Shown here: one piece after another, positions 5,894-43,144 of the stretch
How positions within the stretch are numbered: the stretch's first letter is position 1
Layout: each line of letters begins with the position of its first letter
NCBI GenBank assembly: GCA_000004695.1
Contig: CM000152.2
Coordinates: forward strand, 4,992,001-5,056,000
Direction: 5' to 3'
Source: Dictyostelium discoideum
Taxonomy: Eukaryota
Length of the DNA: 64,000 nt
The notes under the pieces: generated by a model
The model's database searches: none
Told to the model about the DNA's origin: nothing
Seen by the model: only the letters and a program-made list of their open reading frames with translations
Made by a program: the position numbers and the translations under genes

Positions 5894-8502
5894 ATGAATA
5901 AAAGTAAAGTAACTAGTAAAAAAGTTGTTGCCGAAACTAAAGTTGTAAATAATAAGAAATCTGAACCAATTGCAGTTTCAGAACCAAAGAAATCAGTTTC
6001 AAAACCAACAACAACTGCAACAACCACAGTTTCTAAATCACCAGTTTCAACAATTACCACTCAAATTTTAGGTAAAAGAACTAAAACTCCAGTTGTAAGA
6101 GATGAAGAAAATGAAGATGAAAAATTAGATTTCGGAAATATTGATTTAAATAATTATAATAGTGAAGATGATGAAGATTATGAAAGTGAAGAAGATGATG
6201 AAGGAGATGATGAAGAAGATGTTGAATCACAAAATGGTAGTATTGTATATTCAGAATCTGAAGAAGAAGAAGAAGGTGGTATTAATAAAGCATTATTAGA
6301 AGCAGAGGAATCATTAGTTGAATATCAATCAGAAGATGATAGTGGTTCAATTTCATCAAAATCATCATCATCAACAACAACAACAACAACAACAACTAAA
6401 AAAACTAATAATGATGAAGAAGAAGTTGCACCAAATAAACAATGGACAAATGATCCAAATCAATTTTATGATAGTGATGATTCTTCTGAGGATGAAGTAA
6501 GTATATAATTTTGTTAATTTTTTAAATTATTTTTTAAAAAAAAAAGTAATAATAATATTAATTAATATTATTATTATTTTTTTTAAAAATTTTTTTTTTT
6601 TAGTCATTAGTAAATAGAATTGGTAATATACCACTTGAATGGTATGATGATTATGATCATATTGGTTATGATGTTGATGGTAATAAAATTATGAAAACTG
6701 AATCAATGAAAGATTCAATTGATAAATATTTAGATCAACAAGATCCAAACTTTTGGAGAACAGTATATGATAAAGTTAATGATAAGAAAGTTGTACTTTC
6801 AGATGATGATATGGCATTATTAAAGAGTATTCAAAATAAACATTTCATACCAGGTTATGATCCATACGCAGATTGGTATGATTCAGGTAACAATCATCCA
6901 GATTCAATTCATCCAATGCATAATGCACCAGTACCAAAACGTTCATTCTTTCCAAATGGTACAGATGAAGAGAGAGAGATTCGTCGTTTAACAAAGGCAA
7001 TTCGTATGGGTTGGATTAAATTGAATAAAAAGGGTAAGAAGGGTGAAAAGGATAAGAAAGATGGTAACTTTGATTTATGGGCTGATGAAGGTGAAGAAAA
7101 AGAGAAAACCAAAGGTATCAGACGTATTGCAGCACCAAAACAAAAGCTACCAGGTAATGTTGAATCATTCAATCCACCAGAAGAGTATCTCTTGAATGAG
7201 AATGAACTTAAGGCATGGCATTTAATGGATCCAAGAGAACGTCCACACAATTTCATTCCACAAAAGTATCAATCACTTCGTCAATTACCAATCTACAATA
7301 AATTGATTAAGGAACGTTTCGAACGTTGTCTTGATCTTTACCTTTGTCCACGTACAACTCGTGTTAAACAATTCACAAAGGATCCAACTAAATTCCTTCC
7401 AACACTTCCAAAACCACAAGATCTCCGTCCATTCCCATCCCATGAGGAAATTCAATTCCTTGGTCATAAAGCTCGTGTTAGATCCATTTCAATCTCACCA
7501 AATGGTCAATGGTTAGCTAGTGGTTCCGATGATTGCACCATTAAAATTTGGGAAGTTTCAAGTACACGTTGTCTCTACTCTTTAGAGGTTGAATCTGAAG
7601 TACAAACCGTCGCTTGGAATCCAAATCCAATCTACAATATCTTGGCCGTTGGTTATAGTAATAAAATCATAATTATCACTCCACCACTTTTCGGTACTCA
7701 AACTGAACATTCCCCAGAGACTGAAAAAATTTTAACCAAACCACCAACTGATTCTTCAACTGAACAACAACAAAATAAATCTGTCAATTGGTATCAAGTA
7801 ACTGGTGCTGATAAAGCAAAACTCCTTGAAAAAGGTGTACGTATTGAAATTCATCATCCATTCACTGTAAAGAATTTAACTTGGCATTATAAGGGTGACT
7901 ACTTTTCAACCACATCTCCAGAGGAAGGTACTCGTTCAGTTAAAATCCATCATCTCTCTAAAAGAGCAACTCAATCACCATTTAGAAAGAGTAAAACTCC
8001 AAATCAAGTCACTCGTTTCCATCCAAATAAACCAATCTTCTTTGTTGCCGATCAAAATATAATTCGTGTCTATGATCTCATGAAACAAGAATTAATCAAA
8101 AAGTTAATCACTGGTTGTAGATACATTAGTTCCATCGATATTCATCCACAAGGTGATAATGTCATCATGGGTGGCTATGATAAAAAGGTTTGTTGGTTTG
8201 ATTTGGATCTTTCTGTACGTCCATACAAAGTTTTAAATTATCATAAAATGGCTGTACGTAAAGTTATCTATCATCCAACTTTACCATTATTCGCCTCTTG
8301 TTCAGATGATCTTTCAATTCATGTTTTCCATGGTATGGTTTATGATGATCTCTTACAAAATGCTCTCATCGTTCCACTTAAAATTCTTAAAACTCATGAA
8401 TCTATTAATGATTTAGGTGTTTTAGATATTGTTTTCCATCCAAAACAACCTTGGATCTTTTCTTCTGGTGCTGATTCAACAATAAGATTATATACTAATT
8501 AA
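5894..8502 (+). CDS. bop1: Ribosome biogenesis protein BOP1/Erb1 (BOP1 N-terminal domain + WD40 repeats)
   Basis: Exons 5894..6496 and 6604..8502, with a GTAAGT...TTTAG intron. The N-terminus is Ser/Glu/Asp-rich and acidic. Exon 2 opens with NRIGNIPLEWYDDYDHIGYDVDGNKIMK (BOP1NT signature), followed by WD repeats (GHKARVRSISISPNGQWLASGSDDCTIKIWEV ... FHPKQPWIFSSGADSTIRLY). Confidence 0.9.
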
Positions 8503-8988: not shown

Positions 8989-11811
8989 ATGGCAAAAAAG
9001 AAATTTGTAGAAAATACAAACTGGAAAAAGATTGACACAGATAATCAATTAATTTTTGAACAAGGTGGTTTTTTAGGTTTGGAAGAAATTGATCCAAATG
9101 ATTACTTTTTAACTGATAAAAATGTTGATAAAATTGAAAAACAACAAAAACAAAAACAAAAACAAGAACAAGAACAAGAACAAAAACCAACAAACAAATT
9201 AACAACAAAATCAACAACAAAATCAACACCAGTACAAAACAAGAATCAAAAACCAGTTGACAAAAAGAGAAAATCAAAAAAAGGTAATGATGATTCAGAT
9301 AATGAATATAGTGGTTATCAAGATGATAGCGATCAAGATGATGAATACTCTGCAGCTAAAAAGAAACCAAGAATTATAAAACCAACTGAAACAGTTGACA
9401 TGGGTACTGAATTATTAAATTCTTTTGTTGAAGGTACTGTCCATAATAAAAAGAAACAAAGAAAAGGAATAAAAGTTAAACAAATTATCGATGATAATGA
9501 TAATGATTTTGAAGATGAAGAGGAAGAAGTTAAACCACAACAAAAATTACAAAAACAAAAACAACAAGAACAAAAGCAAAAACAACCACAAAAACAACCA
9601 CAACAACCAAATAAAAAAAATAATAAAAAGGAATTACAAAAAGAAGAAGAGGAACAAATGGAGGAGGAGAAGGAGGAAGAAGAAGTACAACAAGAAGAAG
9701 AAGAAGAAAAAGAAATTAAAAAACCAATTAAAGAAAAAAAAGTTAAAACTCAAAAACAAATTGAAGCAGCTAAAAAAAATATTAATAAATTAGAAAAGAT
9801 TAAAAAGAGAAAAGAGATTTCAGAACAAAAAACAATTTCAAAAGAGGAACAAGATCAATTAGATATGTCAGAATGGAATAGTTATAATCTTGATCCATTA
9901 ATTCTTAAAGGTTTACGTTCATTAGGTTTCTCAAAACCAACAGAAATTCAATCATCTGTTATTCCAGTTGCAGTTTCATCAGGTTATGATGTTATTGGTG
10001 CAGCTCAAACTGGTTCGGGTAAAACTTTAGCATTTGGTATTCCAATGGTACAAAGAATTTTACAACATTTAAGAAAACATGGTCAAAATGTTGAAAATAA
10101 AGCTAACAAACAACAAAATGATAATGATGACGAAAATGAAGATGTTGAAGAGGAGGAGGAAGAAGAGGAAGAAGAGGGTAGATCAAAAGAATATAGAAAA
10201 TTATTTTCATTAGTAATTTGTCCAACTAGAGAATTAGCAATTCAAGTTACAAATCATATTAAATCAATTATTTCACATACAAATTTAAAGGTTATTTCAA
10301 TTGTTGGTGGTATGGCATCACAAAGACAACAAAGAGTTTTATCAAAGAGACCAGAGATTGTTGTTGCGACACCAGGTCGTCTTTGGGAATTAATTACTGA
10401 AGGTCATCAACATTTAGTTGAATTGGAAAGTTTATTATGTTTAGGTATTGATGAAGCAGATCGTATGGTTGAACAAGGTCATTTCGCAGAGTTGGAAAGT
10501 ATTTTAAAGACATTACCAATTCATCGTACAGCAATGTCAAAGAAAGAAAGATTAAAAAAGAAAGAAACCGAAGAAAAGCGTAATAAACGTAGAAAAGTTG
10601 ATAAATTAAATGACAAGGGTGAAATGATTAAAGGCGATCAAGATGATATGGATGATCAAATTCCAGATGAAGAAATGGAAGAATTAGAACAAGAGGAACA
10701 AAACCATCTTACAACTACACACAAAAGACAAACATTTGTTTTCTCTGCAACACTTGTAAACATACCAGGTGATGGTGCACCAACAAGTCAAAAAAAGAAA
10801 TATAGAAAATTGACACCAATTGAAAATTTAATTGAAAAAGTTCGTTTCCAACGTGACTATAAATTAATTGATGTGACTCAAAAGAGATTGACAGCAAAGA
10901 ATCTTTTAGAAACTAAAATCTTTTGTAATCTTGAAGAAAAGGATATGTATCTTTATTACTTTGTTGAAAGATATCCAGGTCGTACATTGGTATTTGTAAA
11001 TTCAATTGATTGTGCACGTCGTTTAATTCCAATTTTCAATATATTAGAGGTACCAGTATTTGCACTCCATGCACAAATGCAACAAAAGCAACGTTTAAAG
11101 AATCTTGATCGTTTCCGTACTTTAGATAATGTGGTTTTAATTGCAACCGATGTTGCCGCTCGTGGTTTAGATATTCCATTGGTTCAACATGTAATTCATT
11201 ATCAAGTACCACGTACAACTCAATTATACATTCATCGTAGTGGTCGTACTGCTCGTTCAGATCAAGATGGTATTTCAGTTGTATTGGTAACTCCAAAAGA
11301 ACGTCCACTCTATATTAAATTGGATTCTTCAATCGAGCATGATATTGGTAATTTCCCAACCGATATTCGTTATATGGAGGGTGTTAGAGATAGAATTGAA
11401 TTGGCAAAAGAAATCGATAAATTATCTCATCAATCATTAAAAGATAATAGAGAGAAAAGTTGGTTCAAAAAACAAGCTGAAGAAATGGATATCGAATTGG
11501 ATGGTGACTTTTTCGGTGAAAACTCTGATGATGAACAATCTGAAGATACTCGTATAGCTGAACAAAAGAAACAATTTAAATTAAAACAATTAAGAGCTCA
11601 ATTGAAACACTTACTCTCTCGTTCACTTTTACCAAGAGGTGTTTCTCAATCCTATATCACTGCTTCTGCAATTCAAGAATTAGAATCAAAGAGTCAATCT
11701 TCCGCTGCAACTGATTTCTCAAATAAAGCTAAAAATGTAATTGGTAAAAAAGCAAAACAACTTGCAATTGAAAATCATTCAAAATTTTTAACAAAAAATA
11801 AAAAGAAATAA
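8989..11811 (+). CDS. ddx24: DEAD-box ATP-dependent RNA helicase, DDX24/Mak5-like, 940 aa
   Basis: Single ORF with Q-motif/motif I (GAAQTGSGKTLAFGIPM), a long acidic insertion after motif I, then motifs PTRELA, DEADRM, SAT and HRSGRTAR. The N-terminal region is Lys/Glu/Gln-rich. The insertion between motif I and Ia is typical of DDX24/Mak5. Confidence 0.85.
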   Translation: MAKKKFVENTNWKKIDTDNQLIFEQGGFLGLEEIDPNDYFLTDKNVDKIEKQQKQKQKQEQEQEQKPTNKLTTKSTTKSTPVQNKNQKPVDKKRKSKKGNDDSDNEYSGYQDDSDQDDEYSAAKKKPRIIKPTETVDMGTELLNSFVEGTVHNKKKQRKGIKVKQIIDDNDNDFEDEEEEVKPQQKLQKQKQQEQKQKQPQKQPQQPNKKNNKKELQKEEEEQMEEEKEEEEVQQEEEEEKEIKKPIKEKKVKTQKQIEAAKKNINKLEKIKKRKEISEQKTISKEEQDQLDMSEWNSYNLDPLILKGLRSLGFSKPTEIQSSVIPVAVSSGYDVIGAAQTGSGKTLAFGIPMVQRILQHLRKHGQNVENKANKQQNDNDDENEDVEEEEEEEEEEGRSKEYRKLFSLVICPTRELAIQVTNHIKSIISHTNLKVISIVGGMASQRQQRVLSKRPEIVVATPGRLWELITEGHQHLVELESLLCLGIDEADRMVEQGHFAELESILKTLPIHRTAMSKKERLKKKETEEKRNKRRKVDKLNDKGEMIKGDQDDMDDQIPDEEMEELEQEEQNHLTTTHKRQTFVFSATLVNIPGDGAPTSQKKKYRKLTPIENLIEKVRFQRDYKLIDVTQKRLTAKNLLETKIFCNLEEKDMYLYYFVERYPGRTLVFVNSIDCARRLIPIFNILEVPVFALHAQMQQKQRLKNLDRFRTLDNVVLIATDVAARGLDIPLVQHVIHYQVPRTTQLYIHRSGRTARSDQDGISVVLVTPKERPLYIKLDSSIEHDIGNFPTDIRYMEGVRDRIELAKEIDKLSHQSLKDNREKSWFKKQAEEMDIELDGDFFGENSDDEQSEDTRIAEQKKQFKLKQLRAQLKHLLSRSLLPRGVSQSYITASAIQELESKSQSSAATDFSNKAKNVIGKKAKQLAIENHSKFLTKNKKK

Positions 11812-11889
11812 AATAAAAAAAAAAAAAGAATTACAAATAAATAAATAAATAAAAAAAAATAAAAAAAACAGATTTTATTTATTGTCTTA

Positions 11890-12044
11890 TTATAATAAAA
11901 TAAATGACAAAATAATTAATGATACAATTATTAACATTTGAATTTTTGAATTTGGTAATTTAAATGAATCACTCTTTAGAACACAATCATCAATGGTAAT
12001 GGTTTTTGGTAAATATCCAGAATATTTACCATTTGCTTTGGGGG

Positions 12045-12077
<33 letters not shown>

Positions 12078-13484
12078 AAATTAGAAAATTTGAAAATAGT
12101 TTTGTAAAAAAAAACCATTAAATATAAAACATACCAGTTGTTCCACCATTTGTTGGTATAGATGATTTTAAATAGCATTGGTTTCCAGTAAATGTAAAAG
12201 CATAACATAATGGAGTTACTTGACATTTTGCACAACAATCTTGAGGAGTATCAAGTTTAACTAAATATTTTTAATATTAAAAATATTTATTAATATAAAT
12301 AAAAGGTTAAATTAAAAGGATTTGGTTATAAATAATATAATATAGTTACATGTTCCACCAGTAAGATCATTTCCAGCATAATCAAGATTTGGAATTATGG
12401 TACAATTTCCTAAGTTTTTACAACCACAACCAGAAGATCCTGCTTGGCATTCGCATTTTCCATTTTTACAGATACTAATTTATAAATTGAAATTTTGAAA
12501 ATATTGTTAGTAAAATTTTAAAAAATTATAAAAAAAAATAATATTAATATATTACCTTCTTGAACCACAATCAACTTGATAACATGAAGAATCTTTTGGT
12601 GGTTCTGTACAAAATTCACCAGTATAGCCTTCAAGACAAGTACACTTATCACCACCAGCAGATGCAGTGGTTGCATTACATCTACCATAGTAGCCACAAT
12701 TAACGCCATAACATGGTGTGTAATCAGATTTTACAGAACAAGTTGGACCTCCATAACCTGGTTGACAAAGACATAATCCAGAAACACCATCTGGGGCTCT
12801 CATACCACCCATACAGACACCATCATTTAAACATTTAACATTCTTACATGCATTTAAATCCTTTTGGTCAAGACAACTCCATTGAATTAAAAGTGTATTT
12901 AGATTTAAAGAACTCCAACCAGCAGTTCCATAATTATCAATCTCTGTTGGGAACCAATAATTTCCAGAACCCCAACAATTTGGTGATGTTGTAGTATTTG
13001 GACAACCAGAGCAACAATGAATATTTTTGGTTGATCCATCATCATAAAAGGCTGTTACATTTAAACCGGCAGTAAAAGCATCAATATTTGAAATATCAAC
13101 AAATAATAAATTATTATAATCGGTAGCACCACCTTCAAATAATGTATACTCATTACCACATTGTCCTTTCTAAATTAAATTTAAAATTTAAAATAATAAA
13201 ATTAAATTAAAATTGGATTTATTTATAAATTAATTAATTTTTTAAACAATTTTATTTACATTTGTAACTGGAGCTGATCTATCACCAGTACCTTGATCAG
13301 GGATAATATAGGTAACATTTCCATTGAATGGAACATCACAACTTGATTTAACAATTGTTGATTCTAAATAATGAAATTGTGATGGACAATTATTTTCAAT
13401 TACATATTTAAATCTATATGAAAATGATAAATGTACTATTGATAATAATACAAATAATTTTATAATATATTTTTTATTAAGCAT
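11890..13484 (-). CDS. Secreted cysteine-rich protein with EGF-like repeats and a PAN/apple-like module, C-terminal hydrophobic tail (GPI or TM); 411 aa, 5 exons
   Basis: Exons on minus: 13484..13260 (signal peptide MLNKKYIIKLFVLLSIVHLSFS), 13169..12556 (EGF-like CxC...GxxGxxC repeats), 12474..12350, 12260..12135 (CCAKCQVTPLCYAFTFTGNQCYLKSS, PAN-like), 12035..11890 (ends ...MLIIVSLIILSFILL). Donors are GTAAAT, GTAATA, GTAACT and GTATGT. The last intron contains a poly(T) tract of about 30 nt. Confidence 0.7.
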
Positions 13485-30559: not shown

Positions 30560-31338
30560 ATAGAATATTACATTAAAATTTCCTAAATTCTTAAGGTATT
30601 ACAAAAAAAAATACAAATAGGAATTTAGGATATTTTAATGTGATATTCTTTTGTTTTTTTTTAAGAATTTCTATGTAATATTTTCTTTTTTGTAAAAAAT
30701 CTGATTAGGTTTTATTTTATTTTTTTTTATTTTTTGTTTTTATAAAAACTTTTTACTTGGTAACAAAGATGAACTTTCAAAATCTGAAATTGATGATTTT
30801 ATAAAAGCTATTGAAAAAGTAAAACAAATTCGAGAAATTTTAAATAAAAACAATAATAATAAATAAAGAAAACTAAAATTAATTCAAAAAAAAATAAAAT
30901 AAAATAAAAAATAAAATAAAAATAATAAAAAAAAATAATAATATTAAAATTGGAAACAAATTAGGTTTTATTATATTTTATTATAAATTTTTGATATATC
31001 TATTTATTAATTTTTTACATGAAATGGTAATTAAACAAATGGAACAGTTAAATTTTAGAATTAAAAAAAAATAATTAAAATATTATTATAATAATATATA
31101 ATTATTTTTTTTTTTGGGTCCAAACCTATGACAATCACACATTTAATTTGATAAAACTTAAATCGATTATATTTATTTATATATTTATTATATTATCAAT
31201 AATTTAAAAAGATATTATATAAATAATATGGCTGATATAGATAATTTCTAACACTAACTTATAACACCCAAAAAAAAAAAAAAATAATAATTTCCAAACA
31301 TTAAACCAATAACAATTTATTTACACAAGTTAATTTTT

Positions 31339-31372
<34 letters not shown>

Positions 31373-31431
31373 ATAAAATTCAATGTTAAATCGATTATAT
31401 ATTTATTTATATATTTATTATATTATATTAT

Positions 31432-33642
31432 TTAGTTTAAACTTAAAACGTATTGTTCAAAGTTCTTAAAGTTAATTGAACCTAAACCTGAGGCAGCATC
31501 ATAACCAGTGGTAGCGGTGTAACCATATTGACAACAGTAAGCTCTGTTACAGTTGTTTGCACCAGTGGTAATATCATTGAAAACGTTTGGTTGTTCTTTG
31601 GCAGCTTGGTATAATAATGGATTTAAGAAACCGAGGGTTGGTTTACCAGCACCAATTAATTTATCATTAATTAAAGAGATCATACCAGCAAGAGTTGGTG
31701 ATGAACATGAGGTACCATCAACACTTTCTAAGGCGCATGGACAGGTATTTGAGGTGAGAGTGTTTGGAACGGCGATTTCATAAGCATGACCAACAAGAGT
31801 AAGATCTGGATAGAATCTATTGGTGGCATTGTATGAATATGATGGTGGGAGAGTACCACTTTTGATGTAAGTGGCAACGGCATCAGCTTGGTATGATGGT
31901 TGAGCTTGAGTGATAGCAACACCACCTCCACCAGTAATGATGGCGCCAGTTGCGACTGAACAAACAATTTCTGGTTTGGTAACATCAGTGATTTGAGTGG
32001 CACCAACAGAGGTGATGAATGGTGATGAAGCTGGATAATCTGGTTGGAAGAGGGTACCAGCATCTTGATCATAAGAGTAACCAACGATCTTGAAACCAGC
32101 ATCACTATCAGAGTATGGTTTTAATTTGTCACAAGTACAGCTAGAGTAGATGTGGTAGTTTTGTTGAGTATCTTGTTCGAGGGCGACTTGACATTTAGAG
32201 TTTGAGCTAACAAATTCATTGATACCATTGACGATATTTTGGTTTTGTAACATAGATTGACAAGTGTTACTTTCTGAACCCATTGGGAAGAAACATTGAG
32301 TACCGTTGCTTTCCATGATGGTAATCATTGGACATTGAGAAGATTTATGGTTACATCCACCTAATGGGCAGTATTGTTTGGTACCATCGATTGGACAGTT
32401 ACCAGAGGCAGCACCAAAACTTGGTGCACCATCATCACCAGATGAAACAAAGACTGAAACACCACGTAAACCGACTTTTTGGAGTTCAACATTTGAACGA
32501 GCAACGTAGACAACAGAGTCAATACCAAGAGTAGAACAGCTGTTTGTAATTTCACATTGTTCAACTTCAGCCCAACCGTATGAGATTGAAGCAATCTTTG
32601 GAATTGGGTTGTATTGTTGGATGGCAGTAGCCCAATCAATGATCCATTCACCATTACCTGATGAAAGGAAGAGAGTGGTGATATTGTTACCGATGGCAGT
32701 CATATATTGAACGTCGAGATCAGATTCCATTTGATCACAGTTTTGGGCAATACAGTTTTGACCAACATTTTTAACTCTAACAGTTGATGAATCAATACCG
32801 AATTTTTGATCAAAGAATTGTAAGGCACCTGATGAATAGAAATCAGAGAAGGCAGCAATTGATTGGAAGTTTTCTGATTCAACACCAATTTGACCGGTTG
32901 GGATACCATAGTATTGTTTAATGACTGCTGGAGTGATTGAAACGGTTGAACCTTGAACTTGCTTCTTGGTGGCTCTCATTGATTCACTCATTTTGTTATC
33001 TTCAATGAAATCTGATAAACCTAAAACTAAATCAACTTTTGCTAAAACATGCATTGGCATAGATGCTTGACCTACAACTCTAATTCTCTTAAGAGCAGTA
33101 CGGCTTGATGAGTAGTGAGCAAATGAAGTTTCGAATAAAGTTGAAGCTTTACCAACATTGGTTCTAACTTGGATGAAATCAGAGTGAACGATCATTTCAT
33201 TCTTTGATAAACCATTGTCAATTAACCAATTAACAACAACTTTAACATCTTTTGGTGATGGTGCAACAATTGAATCAATTTCTTCTTTTGATAAAAATTT
33301 ACCATAGTTTTCTGATTTTGGTGATGAAACATCCCAGAATTTCTCTTCTAAAATATCTAAATTTCTCTTTTAAATTTTAAAAAATAAAAAATAAATATTA
33401 GAAATTTATTATTATTTTTAAAAAAATAAGTATAATAATAAAAAAAAATTTAAATTTAAATAACTTACTTGTTTTAATAAAATTTTGAATTGAACTAATT
33501 CATATGATTTGGCTAATTTATTTTGAACAAAATGAGCTGGTGCAGAAGTGACATCAGCAATTGGGACACGTTGGACACTGATTGCTGATGCGAGTGCAAC
33601 AATGCTTAATAATAATAATAATAATGAAGTCTTTGAAATCAT
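31432..33642 (-). CDS. Tripeptidyl-peptidase I / sedolisin (peptidase S53) family secreted protease with pro-domain; about 701 aa, 2 exons
   Basis: Exons on minus: 33642..33469 (signal MISKTSLLLLLLSIVALASA) and 33366..31432, with a GTAAGT...AAAAG intron. It has the pro-kumamolisin activation domain and an S53 catalytic region with the SGTSCSSPTLAGMISLIN serine motif. tpp1-like. Confidence 0.85.
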
Positions 33643-34436
33643 TTTTATAAATATATAAATAAAAGTTTTTTGGATAATGAAAAAAAAAAAAATGAAAACA
33701 ATTGTTTTTATACTTTTTTTTTTCAAAAAACGAAAAAAAAAAAAAATCAAAATTTTCCAAAGAATTTTCCAATTGTTTTTTTACGAAAAAAAATAAAAAG
33801 ACTTTTCTTTTTTGTTTTGTTTTTGATCTAAAAAATTTCAGTGAAATAATTCCGAGTTTCGATTCCACCGTATTGATTCTTAACGTGTAATAATAATATT
33901 AATATAAAATTTTCCCAAACTTTTCCAAATAATTCTTAATATTTTTTGGGTCAAAAACAGATTAGTTTGAAAATTATTTTCACTTTTCAAATCTTTTTTT
34001 TTTTTTTTTTTATTTTTTTGAAACATCCAAAGAAACCCTAATTAATTTTTTTTAACAATTTAAAACAAAACGTCATAATTTAAAATATCTTTATTTTTTT
34101 ATTTTTATATTTTTTTTTTTCTTAATATAATTTATGCTCCAAATTAAAATTAAGAAAATTACTTTAACTTTTAACTCACTTTTGCCTCAACTTTTTTAAA
34201 TTCATCCACATATTTTTTTAATTTAAATGTTTTTCTTCTTTCTTTTTTTTTCTTTAATTTTTTTTTTTTTTTTTTTTTTTTTTTTCAAAACAATCAAAAA
34301 TATCAATTAAAAAAATCTTATCTTAGATAACCGCACATCATAAAAGAATTTTTTGTGGAAAATGCATTCGAAAATTTGAATGTCAAAAAAAAAAATTAAA
34401 AAAAAAATAAAAAAATAATTAAAAAAGTGTTTTACA

Positions 34437-34505
<69 letters not shown>

Positions 34506-35548
34506 TTTTTTAAAACAAGGATTCAATTTTAGTAATACGGATTTATGCCATAAAATATAAAAAAATGAATATATAACCATTCTGTTTTTTGGGTTTTTTT
34601 TTTTTTTTTTTTTTTTAATAACCAAATTTTATTTTTAGGATTTAATTATTTACTATTCATTTTTTGTAATTGTTTTTTATTTGAACAATGAGTAGGGAAT
34701 AAATTCATTAAGGTGGAGAATTTACAAATGTACATATCAAATGTTATATAGGTGTTTTGATTTAATGGGAATAAATTACCAAGACGATACATGTACTGGG
34801 ATAATGGGTATGGCTTTCATTAAATTCAAAAAATAATAACCAGAGACAATTTCAAACCATAAATTCATCGTTACACTTGCTGACAACACAAAAGATGATA
34901 AATTAAGATATATTTTATAAAATTAACCCGTCATTGATTTCAACCAACCCAAATGAATTCAATCGTGAGGATATAGTTGCTTATGATGGGAATCATGCTT
35001 CTATTCAATATTTACATACAATTTGGTTTTAGAGTTTGGAAAATGGTTGGTTCAAATTAAATATGCTATATTATCGATATTTACCAAGGTAAAAATTTAG
35101 TTTTAGAGGGTGGAAATAAATAAACCATTGGGCAGAGAATAGTGTTGCGGATGGTCGAAGTTTTTTTTTTAAAAAAAAGCATCCTTATCAACTTTTTTAT
35201 GATAATTATTTTTCAATTGTACCGCTCACTATGAAATTATATTAAGATCATAATTTTTTTCTACAAGCAAAAATAATAGAGTTAGATTACCAAGATCTTC
35301 AATGTCCACAGCAGAAATACCTCAAGATGGATACTTAATACAAAAAAATTTTTAAGAGTAAATAATTCTAAATTATCCAATATCATTTCAAAGCCTCAAT
35401 TCATTTATAAATAAACAAAAAATCAATAACATTGTTTATTCACAAAATAATAATAATAATTTTAAATCTTTTTTTTTTTTTTTTTTTTTTTGAAATTTTA
35501 TTATTAAATATTTAATGATTAAAAAGTAAATGAGTTTTTTTTTTTTTT

Positions 35549-36392
35549 TTAAAGTTTTTGATTATATTCAAGAGTTGGTAATCTTGGATGTAAACCTTTT
35601 CTTTTTCTAACTGATGAAGCTACAGTTGACCTTTTATTTTGACCAAATATACCAATTGAACTCGAATGGTCAAAAACACATTGAGGGAAAGCTTGACCAT
35701 CAGTACTTGTGCGTAAATCAGCAGTGTAACCAAATGATTCCATTATAGGAAGATAAGCTTTGATATTGAATAATGGAGTACCAATACGACGTTCTTCACC
35801 AATGACTACACCTCTTCTACGTTGTCCTGGGCATGATTTGATTCCTCTGAAATGGATTCACAAAATGATACTACTGGATCTGAGGTAATAATTTCAATGC
35901 CTGCATGATCTCCTGCAAGATATTTAGGACAAATTTCTAAGTGAAGTCCACCTGTACCTTTTGATAATATGTTCACCGGATGTTTCAAGAAATTGATCCA
36001 CCCCAACCAATGATATTACCACATGGACAACCTTGTTTACAAATAAAACTGGTTTAATACTTGACGTAAAACGGTTTCGGTTTGTATACAACTTAAAGAC
36101 AATCGATAACTACCAATGCATCGGTGACACAAAGTGCTGCTGCTAATACAGATCTAAAATCAACATGACCTGGTGAATCAATAAGATTGATTAGGAATTC
36201 GTGTGAGCTACAGCCAATAGGCAATTTTTCATCTAGTATTTTAAAGTGAAGAGAAACTGATCACTTTGTGGTAATACCACCTAATAGTTCATATAGACGA
36301 CATGGCATATATCCTGCATTACCAGATACCCTTTCAGTAATAATACCAGCTCTTTGAATTAATGAGCCAGTAAGAATAGTTTTACCATGACC
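35549..36392 (-). pseudogene. Elongation factor 2 (EF-2) pseudogene fragment with internal deletion, frameshifts and stops
   Basis: Minus-strand translation gives SIGHGKTILTGSLIQRAGII...[14 protein letters not shown]...[14 protein letters not shown] (EF2 G-domain, roughly residues 20-150). It then jumps to [10 protein letters not shown]...[47 protein letters not shown] and ESFGYTADLRTSTDGQAFPQCVFDH...RKRKGLHPRLPTLEYNQKL (EF2 domains IV-V and C-terminus). The segments lie in three different frames with in-frame stops, and about 400 codons are missing internally. The N-terminus is truncated at a poly(A/T) tract (36393-36418). Confidence 0.75.
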
Positions 36393-37046
36393 AATACTTT
36401 TTTTTTTTTTTTTTTTTTAAGAAAGAGAAATTATTGTACAAAGGCAAACTAAAGTTTGGCCAATGTAGGGAAATATAAAGTTTAAGTTTTATTAATATTG
36501 TTTTGTATATTTAATTATATTAATTATTTATATGAGAAAATTAAAAAATTTGCTTAAAGGCACAAAAAAAAAAAATTAAAAAAAAGAAAAAAAAAAAAAA
36601 ATGATTATTAAAATAATTTGTTACTTGTGCTATTAGATTGGATTCACAATTTTTTTTAAAATATAAACTAGAATAGTTATTCTTTGGTTTAAACTTTCAT
36701 TAAAATCTGGTGATATAGAATTTTTCTATTGATAATATTGGATATTGGTATTCAAACTTTAATAAATAAAAAAAGAGTTATAATACACATATTATAATTT
36801 TGTTGCAATGCTAAATACTTTTATAAAAAAATAAAATAAAAAAATATTTCTCCAACTTCAAATGAGAGTGATGATCAAGAAGTAAACCATGATGATGTTA
36901 TCGATTCCACTATAAAAGATTTAGCTTTAAAGAATCCATTACATGCGATTTGTTTGTTGGTACCTCTTTAAAGCTCTTGGAACAATTAAAATAAAAAAAA
37001 AAATTTTATTAATTATTTAATCTGTTTATTATTAAAGGTAAATAAT

Positions 37047-38146
37047 TTATTCAACTTTGTTTAACTTTTCTTGACGTCTTGAATTTGATTTATAAGAGTC
37101 ATAATAGAATTTACCAAAAAGAATGATAAAGAAGGAATTGATGGTGTTTGAAACAATTGCTGGACTTAATGGTGCTTGACATTTTTCTGAATCACGGATT
37201 ACGAACCAATAGCTAACCATTGCTGTACCAGTAAGGAATTGAACAATTTGTGCTTTTGTAATATATTTCTTGAACCAACATGGATTACCCAATGTAGTTT
37301 GGAGATAGTAATAATACATTAAAACTAAAATTAAAAAAATAAAATAAAATAAATAAATATAAATAAAATTTTAAAAATTATTAATAATCAAATGGGTACG
37401 TAAAAGTAAAATTGAAAACAATTTTAATACGTTTCTTTTTTTGATTTAAAATAAAAAAAAAAAAATTACATACCATGAATAAAACTATTTACTAATGTAC
37501 ACCACCAACTACCAACTAACCATTGGTCATGAAGCCATTGCCATGTTACTGGTACCATTGCCATATGATGGAAAATATGTAAAAAGATGATTGGCTTTTT
37601 CTTTAAAGCTAAAATGACAGTGTCAACCAATTCATAGTATTTTGATAAGTAGAAAATGTAGATCCAAAAACCAATTCTACCTTGTACAGATTGACTTGAT
37701 TGTTCGCATACCAATGAAAATGCACCTTGCTCTAAATATTGTTGGTATGCTGCATACATAACACCTGACATCATTGAAAATGATAATATAATTAAATTAA
37801 TGTTGTGAATAATTGAGAAACCTTTTAAAACCATTCCTTTTTTATTTTTCATTATTGCCTATAAAATTTATTTTTTAAAATTAAAGTATTTATTTTTTAA
37901 TTAAAAAATTATTTTTTTTTTTTTAAAAAATTAATAAATCATTATTATTATTATTTTTTTTTTTTTTAAAATTTGTTGGTGTTAAAATTGATCACATACT
38001 TGTAAAGCGAAAATGACCAAAACATAAATTACAGAAGTTGAGAATGGGAATACATAACTTGAAAGTGGAGTTACACCACTTTCCCAACGAAAGTTGGCGG
38101 TATATTGATCAAATGCAATGAGATAATTTTTTACAATATCCATCAT
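37047..38146 (-). CDS. ELO/GNS1/SUR4-family fatty acid elongase, about 270 aa, 3 exons
   Basis: Exons on minus: 38146..38000 (MMDIVKNYLIAFDQYTANFRWES...), 37858..37474 (with the histidine box FLHIFHHMAMVPVTWQWL) and 37324..37047 (...MYYYYLQTT...FGKFYYDSYKSNSRRQEKLNKVE). Donors are GTATGT and GTATGT. Multiple predicted TM helices. Confidence 0.8.
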
Positions 38147-38520
38147 AAAATGGGCTCTTTATTTTGGTGTGATCGAAAAGCTGAATAAAAAAAAAAAAAA
38201 CTTTTTTCTCAACATTGTTTTTTTTTTAAAAAAAAAAATCAATTTTGTGACTTTTTGAATATTAAGGTTTAGGAAAAAAATAAAAAAAAAATAAAAAAAA
38301 ATAATTAAATTTTTTTTTTCAATCACGTTTTTCATTCCAATGACGATAGAATTTATAAAATTTAGATATTTTTTTTTATGTTAAAATAAAATAATAATCT
38401 TTTTTTTTTTTTTTTTTTTTAATCTATAAAATAATTTTTTAATCTATTTTATACTCTTTTTTTAAAAAATAGATAATAGAAAATTATTAATAATTTTAAA
38501 TTATTTTGTTGAAAAACTAA

Positions 38521-38760
38521 TCATAATTAATTAATATTAATTTTTTTTTTTTTTTTTTATTTTATTTTTTTTTTTTTTATTTTATTTTTTTTTTTTATTT
38601 TATTTTTTTTTTTTATTTTATTTTTTTTATTTTATTTTTTTTATTTTATTTTTTTTTTTATTTTATTTTTTTTTTTTATTTTTTTTTTTTTATTTTATTT
38701 TTTTTTTTTTATTTTATTTTATTTTTTTATTTTATTTTTTTTTTTTATTTTATTTTTTTT
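38521..38760. repeat. T-rich minisatellite, (T)n-attttatttt units of about 20-24 bp, about 11 copies
   Basis: Directly visible tandem array in the intergenic region between the elongase start and the 3' end of the ankyrin-like gene. Confidence 0.8.
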
Positions 38761-38912
38761 TTTTTTTTTTTGGATTAAAAATGATAATTTTATTTTTTAC
38801 TTAATTCCAATTATTAAAAAAGTTAAATTAATGGTAATAGTGTCCATTATCAGGAAAATTTTAAAATTTTAAAATTTAAATTTTATTTGTTTGTTTGTTT
38901 GTTTTTTTTTTT

Positions 38913-43144
<4,232 letters not shown>

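Follow-up and report, generated by a model that had tools for sequence, protein, structure and literature searches.

Several routes by which a gene copy can reach a new genomic site have been described. Unprocessed duplicated pseudogenes bring neighbouring non-coding DNA with them, processed or semi-processed pseudogenes are transcript-sized and LINE-mediated, templated or filler-DNA insertions are laid down at double-strand breaks in yeast, plants and mammals, and Pack-MULEs and Helitrons capture gene fragments. Dictyostelium discoideum has been reported to lack processed pseudogenes, and its TRE retrotransposons integrate beside tRNA genes (PMC3159450). Here we describe a decayed copy of an elongation factor 2 (EF2) gene in a 64,000-nt stretch of the D. 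discoideum genome (assembly GCA_000004695.1, contig CM000152.2, positions 4,992,001 to 5,056,000), hereafter the window, whose own numbering we use throughout. The copy, on the minus strand, has an ELO-family gene on one side and a sedolisin (S53 peptidase) gene on the other, and sits inside an insert of about 2.5 kb that is present in D. discoideum and absent from its closest relatives. We regard it as likely to be an unprocessed, dispersed duplicate pseudogene made at the DNA level. A literature search for this pseudogene returned nothing relevant.

The sequences compared were the AX4 locus of the gene that we take below as the parent, Q54JV1 (L005), the orthologous parental loci of 'D. cf. 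discoideum' (L013) and D. citrinum (L014), the canonical efbA locus (L006), and the ACTFIW (L007) and ACTFIR (L015) alleles of the insert. W denotes the AX4 allele of the EF2 copy and L the second D. discoideum allele scored. The ELO-sedolisin interval was taken from seven other genomes via their sedolisin orthologues. The window is 99.6% identical to contig CM142509.1 across 8 kb. In that assembly the copy lies on CM142509.1 (6.43 Mb) and the parent on CM142511.1 (5.29 Mb), two separate chromosome-scale contigs.

Parentage and anatomy of the EF2 copy

The window is very AT-rich, with GC rising to a coding-like 0.36 at 35550-36400. Translation of the minus strand from 36395 to 35549 yields EF2 peptides in three frames with in-frame stops between them. 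The readable peptides are HGKT...DSPGHVDF, IKPVLFVNKV, CPCGNIIG, SGEHI...HLEIC...DPVVSF and the C-terminal ...QAFPQCVFDH. An initial annotation of this DNA had described an EF2 pseudogene with a large internal deletion, and that description holds. The C-terminal ORF (35549-35743, minus strand, 64 aa) matches solved eEF2 chains in the PDB (E=1.6e-12), and no intact EF2 frame is recoverable by simple splicing.

Database EF2 entries were retrieved with a full-length dictyostelid EF2 protein as bait; the stitched pseudo-protein, used as query, returned only fragmentary EF2 matches and missed the D. discoideum proteins. Two EF2 genes are found in D. discoideum, one encoding the canonical 839-aa protein (P0121) and the other a divergent 853-aa paralogue (P0135, identical to Q54JV1 and XP_637051.1) that shares 77% identity with it. 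Orthologues of Q54JV1 are present in D. cf. discoideum, D. citrinum, D. firmibasis and D. dimigraforme. The Q54JV1 gene, at L005 10001-12696 (orthologues at L013 4001-6707 and L014 4001-6688), has a single intron of 134 nt after codon 27; the canonical efbA gene is intronless. By tblastn, the three main blocks of the copy (C-terminal, G-domain and middle) are 84.6, 73.8 and 80.5% identical to Q54JV1, and 65.5, 67.0 and 75.6% identical to canonical EF2. The higher identity in every block identifies the divergent paralogue as the parent. Canonical efbA, which the initial annotation had suggested, falls below Q54JV1 in three of three blocks and was ruled out. The parentage is thereby corrected to a second, divergent EF2 gene, which is under clear purifying selection throughout the species complex of D. 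discoideum: between AX4 and cf. discoideum it differs at 1.6, 1.4 and 9.4% of first, second and third codon positions. We found no literature on the role of this paralogue.

The Q54JV1 locus has a further feature of its own. About 130 nt upstream of its ATG (L005 ~9826-9960) are almost invariant among AX4, cf. discoideum and citrinum, despite a 20% difference between AX4 and citrinum at third codon positions of the gene, and the stretch looks like a constrained leader or regulatory element. The pseudogene retains it (window ~36530-36422) at ~90% identity.

With low complexity filtered, blastn of the copy against the AX4 parental locus gives five strictly colinear blocks of 84-94% identity (Table 1). 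The surviving coding sequence amounts to 863 nt, or 288 of 854 codons. Four deletions (251, 904, 193 and 522 nt) account for the ~566 codons lost, start codon included, a larger loss than the roughly 400 codons first estimated. By tblastn to Q54JV1, fragment A covers aa 28-130 (73.8% identity) plus aa 142-165, fragment C aa 545-585 (80.5%) and fragment D aa 761-851 (84.6%).

The initial annotation had the copy cut at its 5' end by a poly(A/T) tract. Because parental upstream homology resumes beyond the tract, where window 36422-36580 corresponds to parental DNA 66 to ~225 nt before the ATG at 90.6% identity, the tract at 36398-36421 is not the end of the copy and marks where exon 1 and the intron were deleted from within it. 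The parental 5' leader ends A-rich and the parental intron ends A13-G|TGTTGATCATGGTAAAAC; at the junction the copy reads leader-A21-G|TATTGGTCATGGTAAAAC, and the same A-run junction occurs in the ACTFIW and ACTFIR alleles. Further upstream, a 13-nt gap and the motif 'GCC...TTTAAGCAA + T-run' are common to all three alleles, and the motif carries the homology to ~L005 9777.

The 3' limit first given, 35549, is likewise too short. The copy extends through 3'-UTR-like sequence at 35548-35494 (in the ACTFIW allele this homology reaches L005 12766) and, past a run of 25 A residues (A25), through weaker patches to ~35372. A one-patch local alignment of the sequence after the A-run to the parental flanks was apparently negative; re-registration gave three colinear patches, AATAAACAATGTTATTGA, TTTTTTGTTTATTTATAAAT (a 20-mer found unchanged in the cf. 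discoideum parent) and AATGAATTGAGGCTTTG. Among 1326 composition-matched pieces of the window, with homopolymers masked, the patch chain score was reached by 4 and by 5 controls, and jointly by none. The copied segment thus spans ~3.1 kb and takes in the whole Q54JV1 transcription unit, from roughly -225/-285 to ~+175 of the coding sequence. Within 10 kb either side of the parent, no homology was found beyond ~-285 and +175, though these flanks align between species (AX4 against cf. discoideum, 77-82% over hundreds of nt, with 79-82% for the upstream flank). The earlier notion of a decayed segmental duplication therefore stands in that one gene-sized segment was copied, and falls in that neither neighbouring genes nor further flank came with it.

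Empty sites, age and decay of the insert

Three D. discoideum genomes (AX4 type, ACTFIW and ACTFIR) have the occupied site; in D. cf. discoideum, D. citrinum, D. dimigraforme and D. firmibasis the orthologous ELO-sedolisin interval is an empty site, and tblastn found no EF2 sequence in the intervals of these four species. Homology to the empty sites ends at ~36985-36995 and restarts at ~34425-34494 (33855 in D. firmibasis), and in D. citrinum the two flanks are just ~22 nt apart. Two stretches flanking the EF2 copy, which we call blocks ii and iii, are also absent from the empty sites, so that the insert consists of the EF2 copy between ~375 nt (block iii) and ~870 nt (block ii) of DNA of other origin. 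The initial annotation had treated the whole region as one unit, ~2.3 kb of complex, ORF-free DNA; this unit proves to be the insert, up to the homopolymers that blur either end. The left end can be placed only between ~34434 and 34650. At or beside it, at 34438-34501, stands an unbroken A-run, 64 nt long, followed by T10, which is far shorter in ACTFIW.

Over the 1764-nt sedolisin exon, distance from AX4 is 1.3% for ACTFIW, 2.3% for cf. discoideum, 5.6% for citrinum, 7.1% for dimigraforme and 8.2% for firmibasis. Together with the pattern of occupancy, these distances place a single insertion on the stem of D. discoideum sensu stricto, about the time of its separation from D. cf. discoideum. 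A related observation concerns the depth of variation within the named species. Across window 31000-39000, AX4 differs from ACTFIW and ACTFIR, all named D. discoideum, by 1.3% in the conserved exon and by 3-9% in non-coding DNA, and D. cf. discoideum is just 2.3% from AX4 in the same exon; intraspecific divergence is therefore deep relative to the distance to the nearest relative.

The age of the copy was also read from 993 sites at which it could be compared with the parental orthologues of AX4, cf. discoideum and citrinum. The AX4 copy differs from the AX4 parent at 8.9% of sites. Sixty derived or clade-specific states group it with the AX4 and cf. discoideum parents to the exclusion of citrinum, and 4 show the opposite, which places the copy after the citrinum split. 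When the copy is set against just the AX4 and cf. discoideum parents, the informative sites divide 2:7:4, near a trichotomy, and the seven 'cf-like' states are also found in allele L wherever scorable. A cf-like allele was probably the source of the copy, made around the time of the cf. discoideum split.

Since then the copy has evolved without coding constraint. Its private changes fall on codon positions 1, 2 and 3 at 9.4, 6.9 and 5.8% in W and at 7.1, 6.5 and 6.2% in L, a flat pattern that shows neutral drift. Between the two isolates, divergence is 7.0% in block ii, 9.3% in the EF2 part and 8.2% in block iii, compared with 3.3-6.2% in adjacent ordinary non-coding DNA and 0.8-1.5% in exons. 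We take the copy to be a pseudogene without function.

The copy is being removed by deletions that differ among isolates. The AX4 allele retains EF2 aa 28-165, the 33-nt island, ~aa 535-585 and aa 761-853, ~1.05 kb of EF2 sequence in all; the ACTFIW allele keeps aa 30-64 and aa 660-853 (~0.8 kb); and the ACTFIR allele keeps aa 30-64 only (~0.2 kb), with the same left breakpoint as ACTFIW. In ACTFIR the EF2 remnant runs directly into block ii, and ~150 nt of block iii are missing too. The exon-1/intron deletion and the 13-nt upstream gap occur in all three alleles and are therefore old, and the remaining deletions are later independent or nested losses. Three isolates have in this way lost different two-thirds to nine-tenths of the copy while flanking exons diverged by roughly 1-2%. 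The deletion junctions lie at homopolymers or microhomology (an A-run at the exon 1 deletion, a 3-nt TTG at the second deletion, between fragments A and B). One deletion was apparently accompanied by filler DNA: 35204-35438 in AX4 (235 nt) and L007 8387-8532 in ACTFIW (146 nt) are unrelated sequences between perfectly matching flanks, as if, in one lineage, filler DNA had gone into the repair of a deletion. An inversion was ruled out at this position, the sequences being simply unrelated.

Table 1. Features of the insert and of the EF2 copy within it. Positions are those of the window; matches are to the AX4 parental locus (L005).
Feature	Window position	Strand	L005 match	Remarks
Whole D. discoideum-specific insert	34503-36990			~2.5 kb; both ends in A/T homopolymer runs
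Block iii	36616-36990			~375 nt; between ELO 3' flank and copied parental upstream DNA; in all three alleles
Promoter-proximal and 5'-leader copy	36422-36615	minus		36422-36580 secure; 36581-36615 T-rich, only possible
blastn block, upstream of ATG	36548-36422	minus	9809-9935	90.6% identity, E=3e-44
A-run junction	36398-36421	minus		exon 1 (27 codons) and most of 134-nt intron gone
blastn block, intron end and exon 2 start	36424-36028	minus	10187-10609	83.9% identity
Fragment A: exon 2 start, G domain	36028-36397	minus		parent aa 28 to ~165; stop, small indels, frameshifts
Fragment B: domain II island CPCGNIIG	35998-36030	minus		
blastn block, 33-nt island	36030-35998	minus	11514-11546	93.9% identity
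Fragment C: SGEHI...HLEIC...DPVVSF region	35832-35986	minus		parent aa ~535-585
blastn block, middle fragment	35986-35832	minus	11740-11895	86.6% identity
Fragment D: C-terminal domain	35549-35821	minus		parent aa 761-853 and stop codon
blastn block, C-terminus to 58 nt past stop	35821-35495	minus	12418-12754	90.5% identity
3'-UTR-like copy	35494-35548	minus	to 12754	A-run after stop, sequence ending AATAATAAAAT; colinear, same match as C-terminus
A25 run and ATT-rich low complexity	35447-35493	minus		not parental; absent there from L005 and L013
Three colinear patches of parental downstream intergenic DNA	35372-35446	minus		+73 to ~+175
Block ii	34503-35371			~870 nt; GC ~0.27; no ORF >48 aa; in all D. 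discoideum alleles

Origin of the insert

Copying at the DNA level seems to us quite probable. The upstream DNA that was copied holds a TATA-like box and a T-run ahead of the near-invariant leader. The exon-2 boundary reads A-run-AG|T as at the 3' end of the parental intron, with two substitutions and no indel, and alignment to a spliced exon 1-exon 2 junction needs extra deletions instead. Parental downstream homology continues past the A25 run and both AATAAA motifs. As this homology resumes after it, the A25 run is an internal expansion or insertion, not a poly(A) tail, and an internal A25 run argues for a DNA-level copy over a retrocopy. The D. citrinum parent carries a long (ATT)n microsatellite immediately 3' of the gene (L014 ~6770-6950), at the same position as the A25/ATT-rich expansion of the pseudogene, so the site appears prone to low-complexity growth.

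Under this explanation, ectopic DNA fragments would most likely have been picked up when a chromosome break within an A/T run was repaired, laying a composite patch of the EF2 gene copy and blocks ii and iii into the ELO-sedolisin spacer. The oldest deletion, of exon 1 and the intron between two A-runs, is common to all alleles, and later isolate-specific deletions are whittling the copy away.

Several points weigh against this account. The intron evidence is thin, consisting only of an A-run plus 'AG', with exon 1 and nearly all of the intron gone in every allele, and the limits at ~-225 and +175 could in principle lie inside a long parental transcript. The downstream patches are short, AT-rich and seen only in the AX4 allele, ACTFIW carrying unrelated sequence at that position. 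The account names no source for blocks ii and iii, together ~1.25 kb, and the insertion boundaries lie in homopolymers, so that a junction signature is unreadable. At 6.8%, the branch private to the copy is rather long for the dating by presence and absence, and seven sites favour a cf. discoideum-like source allele against two for the AX4 allele; the timing is therefore only approximate.

The same copy could be read as a retrocopy, in which the EF2 paralogue gave a full-length, polyadenylated and perhaps unspliced transcript whose reverse-transcribed copy was integrated here, with the A25 run as a remnant of its poly(A) tail. Strong homology does span about one transcription unit, and its upstream limit falls just after a T-run, a plausible Dictyostelium start site. 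Both alleles that keep the 3' end have a non-parental A-run of 17-25 nt near an AATAAA (3 nt away in AX4, ~17 nt in ACTFIW), and A-runs of at least 15 nt in the given orientation occur just about once per 1.3 kb in the window. We nevertheless think this origin unlikely, given the parental homology beyond the A-run, the better fit of the exon-2 boundary to an intron 3' end than to a spliced junction, and the TATA-like box and T-run upstream of the conserved leader. The A-run itself sits at a site that is prone to low-complexity expansion, as the citrinum array illustrates. ARAGORN found no tRNA gene in the whole 64 kb window to serve as a TRE target, and processed pseudogenes are reportedly absent from D. 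discoideum (PMC3159450). A retrocopy would also leave blocks ii and iii unexplained.

These blocks are the starting point of another explanation, transposon-mediated capture, which the initial annotation had already suggested: they would form the two arms of a mobile element, non-autonomous or undescribed, that picked up the EF2-paralogue gene and brought it in. Foreign DNA does stand on both sides of the gene copy, all of it arrived as one unit, and the GC of block ii, ~0.27, is exon- or transposon-like. The flanks had been called atypical for intergenic DNA. This is so at 34650-35400, where GC is 0.27-0.28 against 0.12-0.16 in nearby ordinary intergenic DNA; at 36450-37050 GC is only 0.17-0.21. 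Transposon capture is nonetheless improbable. No terminal inverted repeats, long terminal repeats (LTRs) or long direct repeats occur in 34380-37060, apart from homopolymer matches. Six-frame peptides of both flanks have no Pfam match at E up to 10, hence no transposase, reverse transcriptase or integrase remnants, and tblastn of the flank peptides against the rest of the window gave nothing above chance. Neither block ii nor block iii recurs within the window or across the ~200 kb of Dictyostelium sequence retrieved. With the insert ends in homopolymers, no target-site duplication or other junction signature is readable, and no Helitron-type ends (5' TC, 3' CTRR plus hairpin) were seen by eye at the approximate termini, which are not defined to the base. 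The claim of a transposon-mediated fragment thus finds neither repeats nor protein remnants, nor a tRNA gene that would attract TRE.

Block ii was also compared with local and parental DNA. Neither block has a colinear match to the parental flanks, and block ii has none to the UQ_con gene region either; block ii as a copied UQ_con neighbour or as parental intergenic DNA was ruled out on these grounds. An Rfam scan of the blocks returned nothing. As first stated, the flanks at 34650-35540 and 36420-37000 hold no ORF of at least 60 aa (longest, 48 aa), and the stop-free peptides of block ii measure only 30-48 aa. Its 3-base periodicity is weak (median 7.6 against 17.3 for the EF2 part), and an origin of block ii as decayed coding DNA leans negative. 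The most coding-like part of block iii is a stop-free stretch on the plus strand at 36850-36985, NISPTSNESDDQEVNHDDVIDSTIKDLALKNPLHAICLLVPL, with no Pfam match and no paralogue within the window. We entertain, as unlikely, one broader possibility, that the blocks are arms of an undescribed element without terminal repeats, or that the insert is a single-event, multi-fragment repair patch, a complete gene with its promoter having moved between chromosomes. If true, a gene would have been transposed by a route that lacks any description for this genome, gene-dense and otherwise said to carry no retrocopies.

Two other explanations seem to us hardly credible. The block could be ancestral intergenic DNA, deleted in other species rather than inserted in D. 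discoideum, and the intervals of dimigraforme, firmibasis and cf. discoideum do hold 819, 672 and 360 nt of their own AT-rich sequence. This would need independent losses in four lineages, with the citrinum flanks left ~22 nt apart, and the EF2 copy is younger than the citrinum split (60 against 4 sites). It is just as hard to believe in a genuine chimeric ELO-EF2 gene that uses the EF2 fragments as exons. In two new assemblies, automatically predicted gene models do continue from ELO into the pseudogene along the same strand (window equivalent ~38150-35549), one at L011 5528-8122 (457 aa, with ELO, GTP_EFTU and EFG_C domains) and one at L015 2917-4599 (333 aa). ELO orthologues in five other genomes end ahead of the insert, at 268-296 aa. 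The substitutions in the EF2 fragments are flat over codon positions, stops and frameshifts break the fragments up, and different parts of EF2 are deleted in different isolates. Homology-guided gene predictors commonly yield such fusions, and the fused models are probably an annotation artefact, a hazard for the neighbouring ELO gene in new assemblies.

Comparison with described systems

We return to a DNA-level duplicate as the preferred reading and set the locus beside the systems it most resembles. A large segmental duplication would differ in bringing neighbouring genes or extended flanks, none of which were co-duplicated here. Pack-MULE or Helitron capture resembles the locus in that a host gene stands between two stretches foreign to the host locus, moved as one unit. 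Here, in contrast, no terminal repeats, hairpin/CTRR ends or transposase remnants were found, and a whole gene with its promoter was copied, not exon fragments alone.

Like a processed or semi-processed, LINE-mediated pseudogene, the copy is transcript-sized, lies on another chromosome than its parent and has an A-run near AATAAA. It differs in its homology beyond the A-run, in the lack of a tRNA-gene target for TRE elements and, as far as the surviving boundary shows with the only intron lost alongside exon 1 in all three alleles, in having an intron-terminal A-run-AG and no exon-exon junction. No target-site duplication is readable, since the copied parental segment abuts blocks ii and iii and the ends of the insert lie in homopolymer runs. 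The locus bears in this way on the published statement that processed pseudogenes are absent from D. discoideum (PMC3159450): it is retrocopy-like at first sight, and a DNA copy explains it better.

Filler-DNA or templated insertions at double-strand breaks, among them NUMTs (nuclear copies of mitochondrial DNA) and captured fragments, share with the insert its composite of unrelated pieces at one site, its homopolymer or microhomology junctions and the later allele-specific replacement by unrelated sequence. They differ in that the mechanism is here inferred only and the sources of two of the three pieces are not traced; we found no description in the literature of such events in Dictyostelium. 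The co-inserted DNA of untraced origin, blocks ii and iii, is the residual novelty of the locus.

The likeness to unprocessed duplicated pseudogenes is the closest. A functional parent exists elsewhere, promoter-proximal, intron-end and downstream non-coding DNA were copied too, and the copy shows frameshifts, stops, deletions and a neutral substitution pattern. It differs from them in lying on another chromosome, in the ~1.25 kb of extra foreign DNA around it, and in the near-exact fit of the copied segment to one transcription unit, a size more usual for a retrocopy. The locus offers a dated case, backed by empty sites, of a compact AT-rich genome gaining and then erasing a gene-sized ectopic copy. 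As a kind of object it is ordinary, a duplicated, unprocessed pseudogene, with an unusually complete natural history of empty sites, approximate dating and three states of decay.

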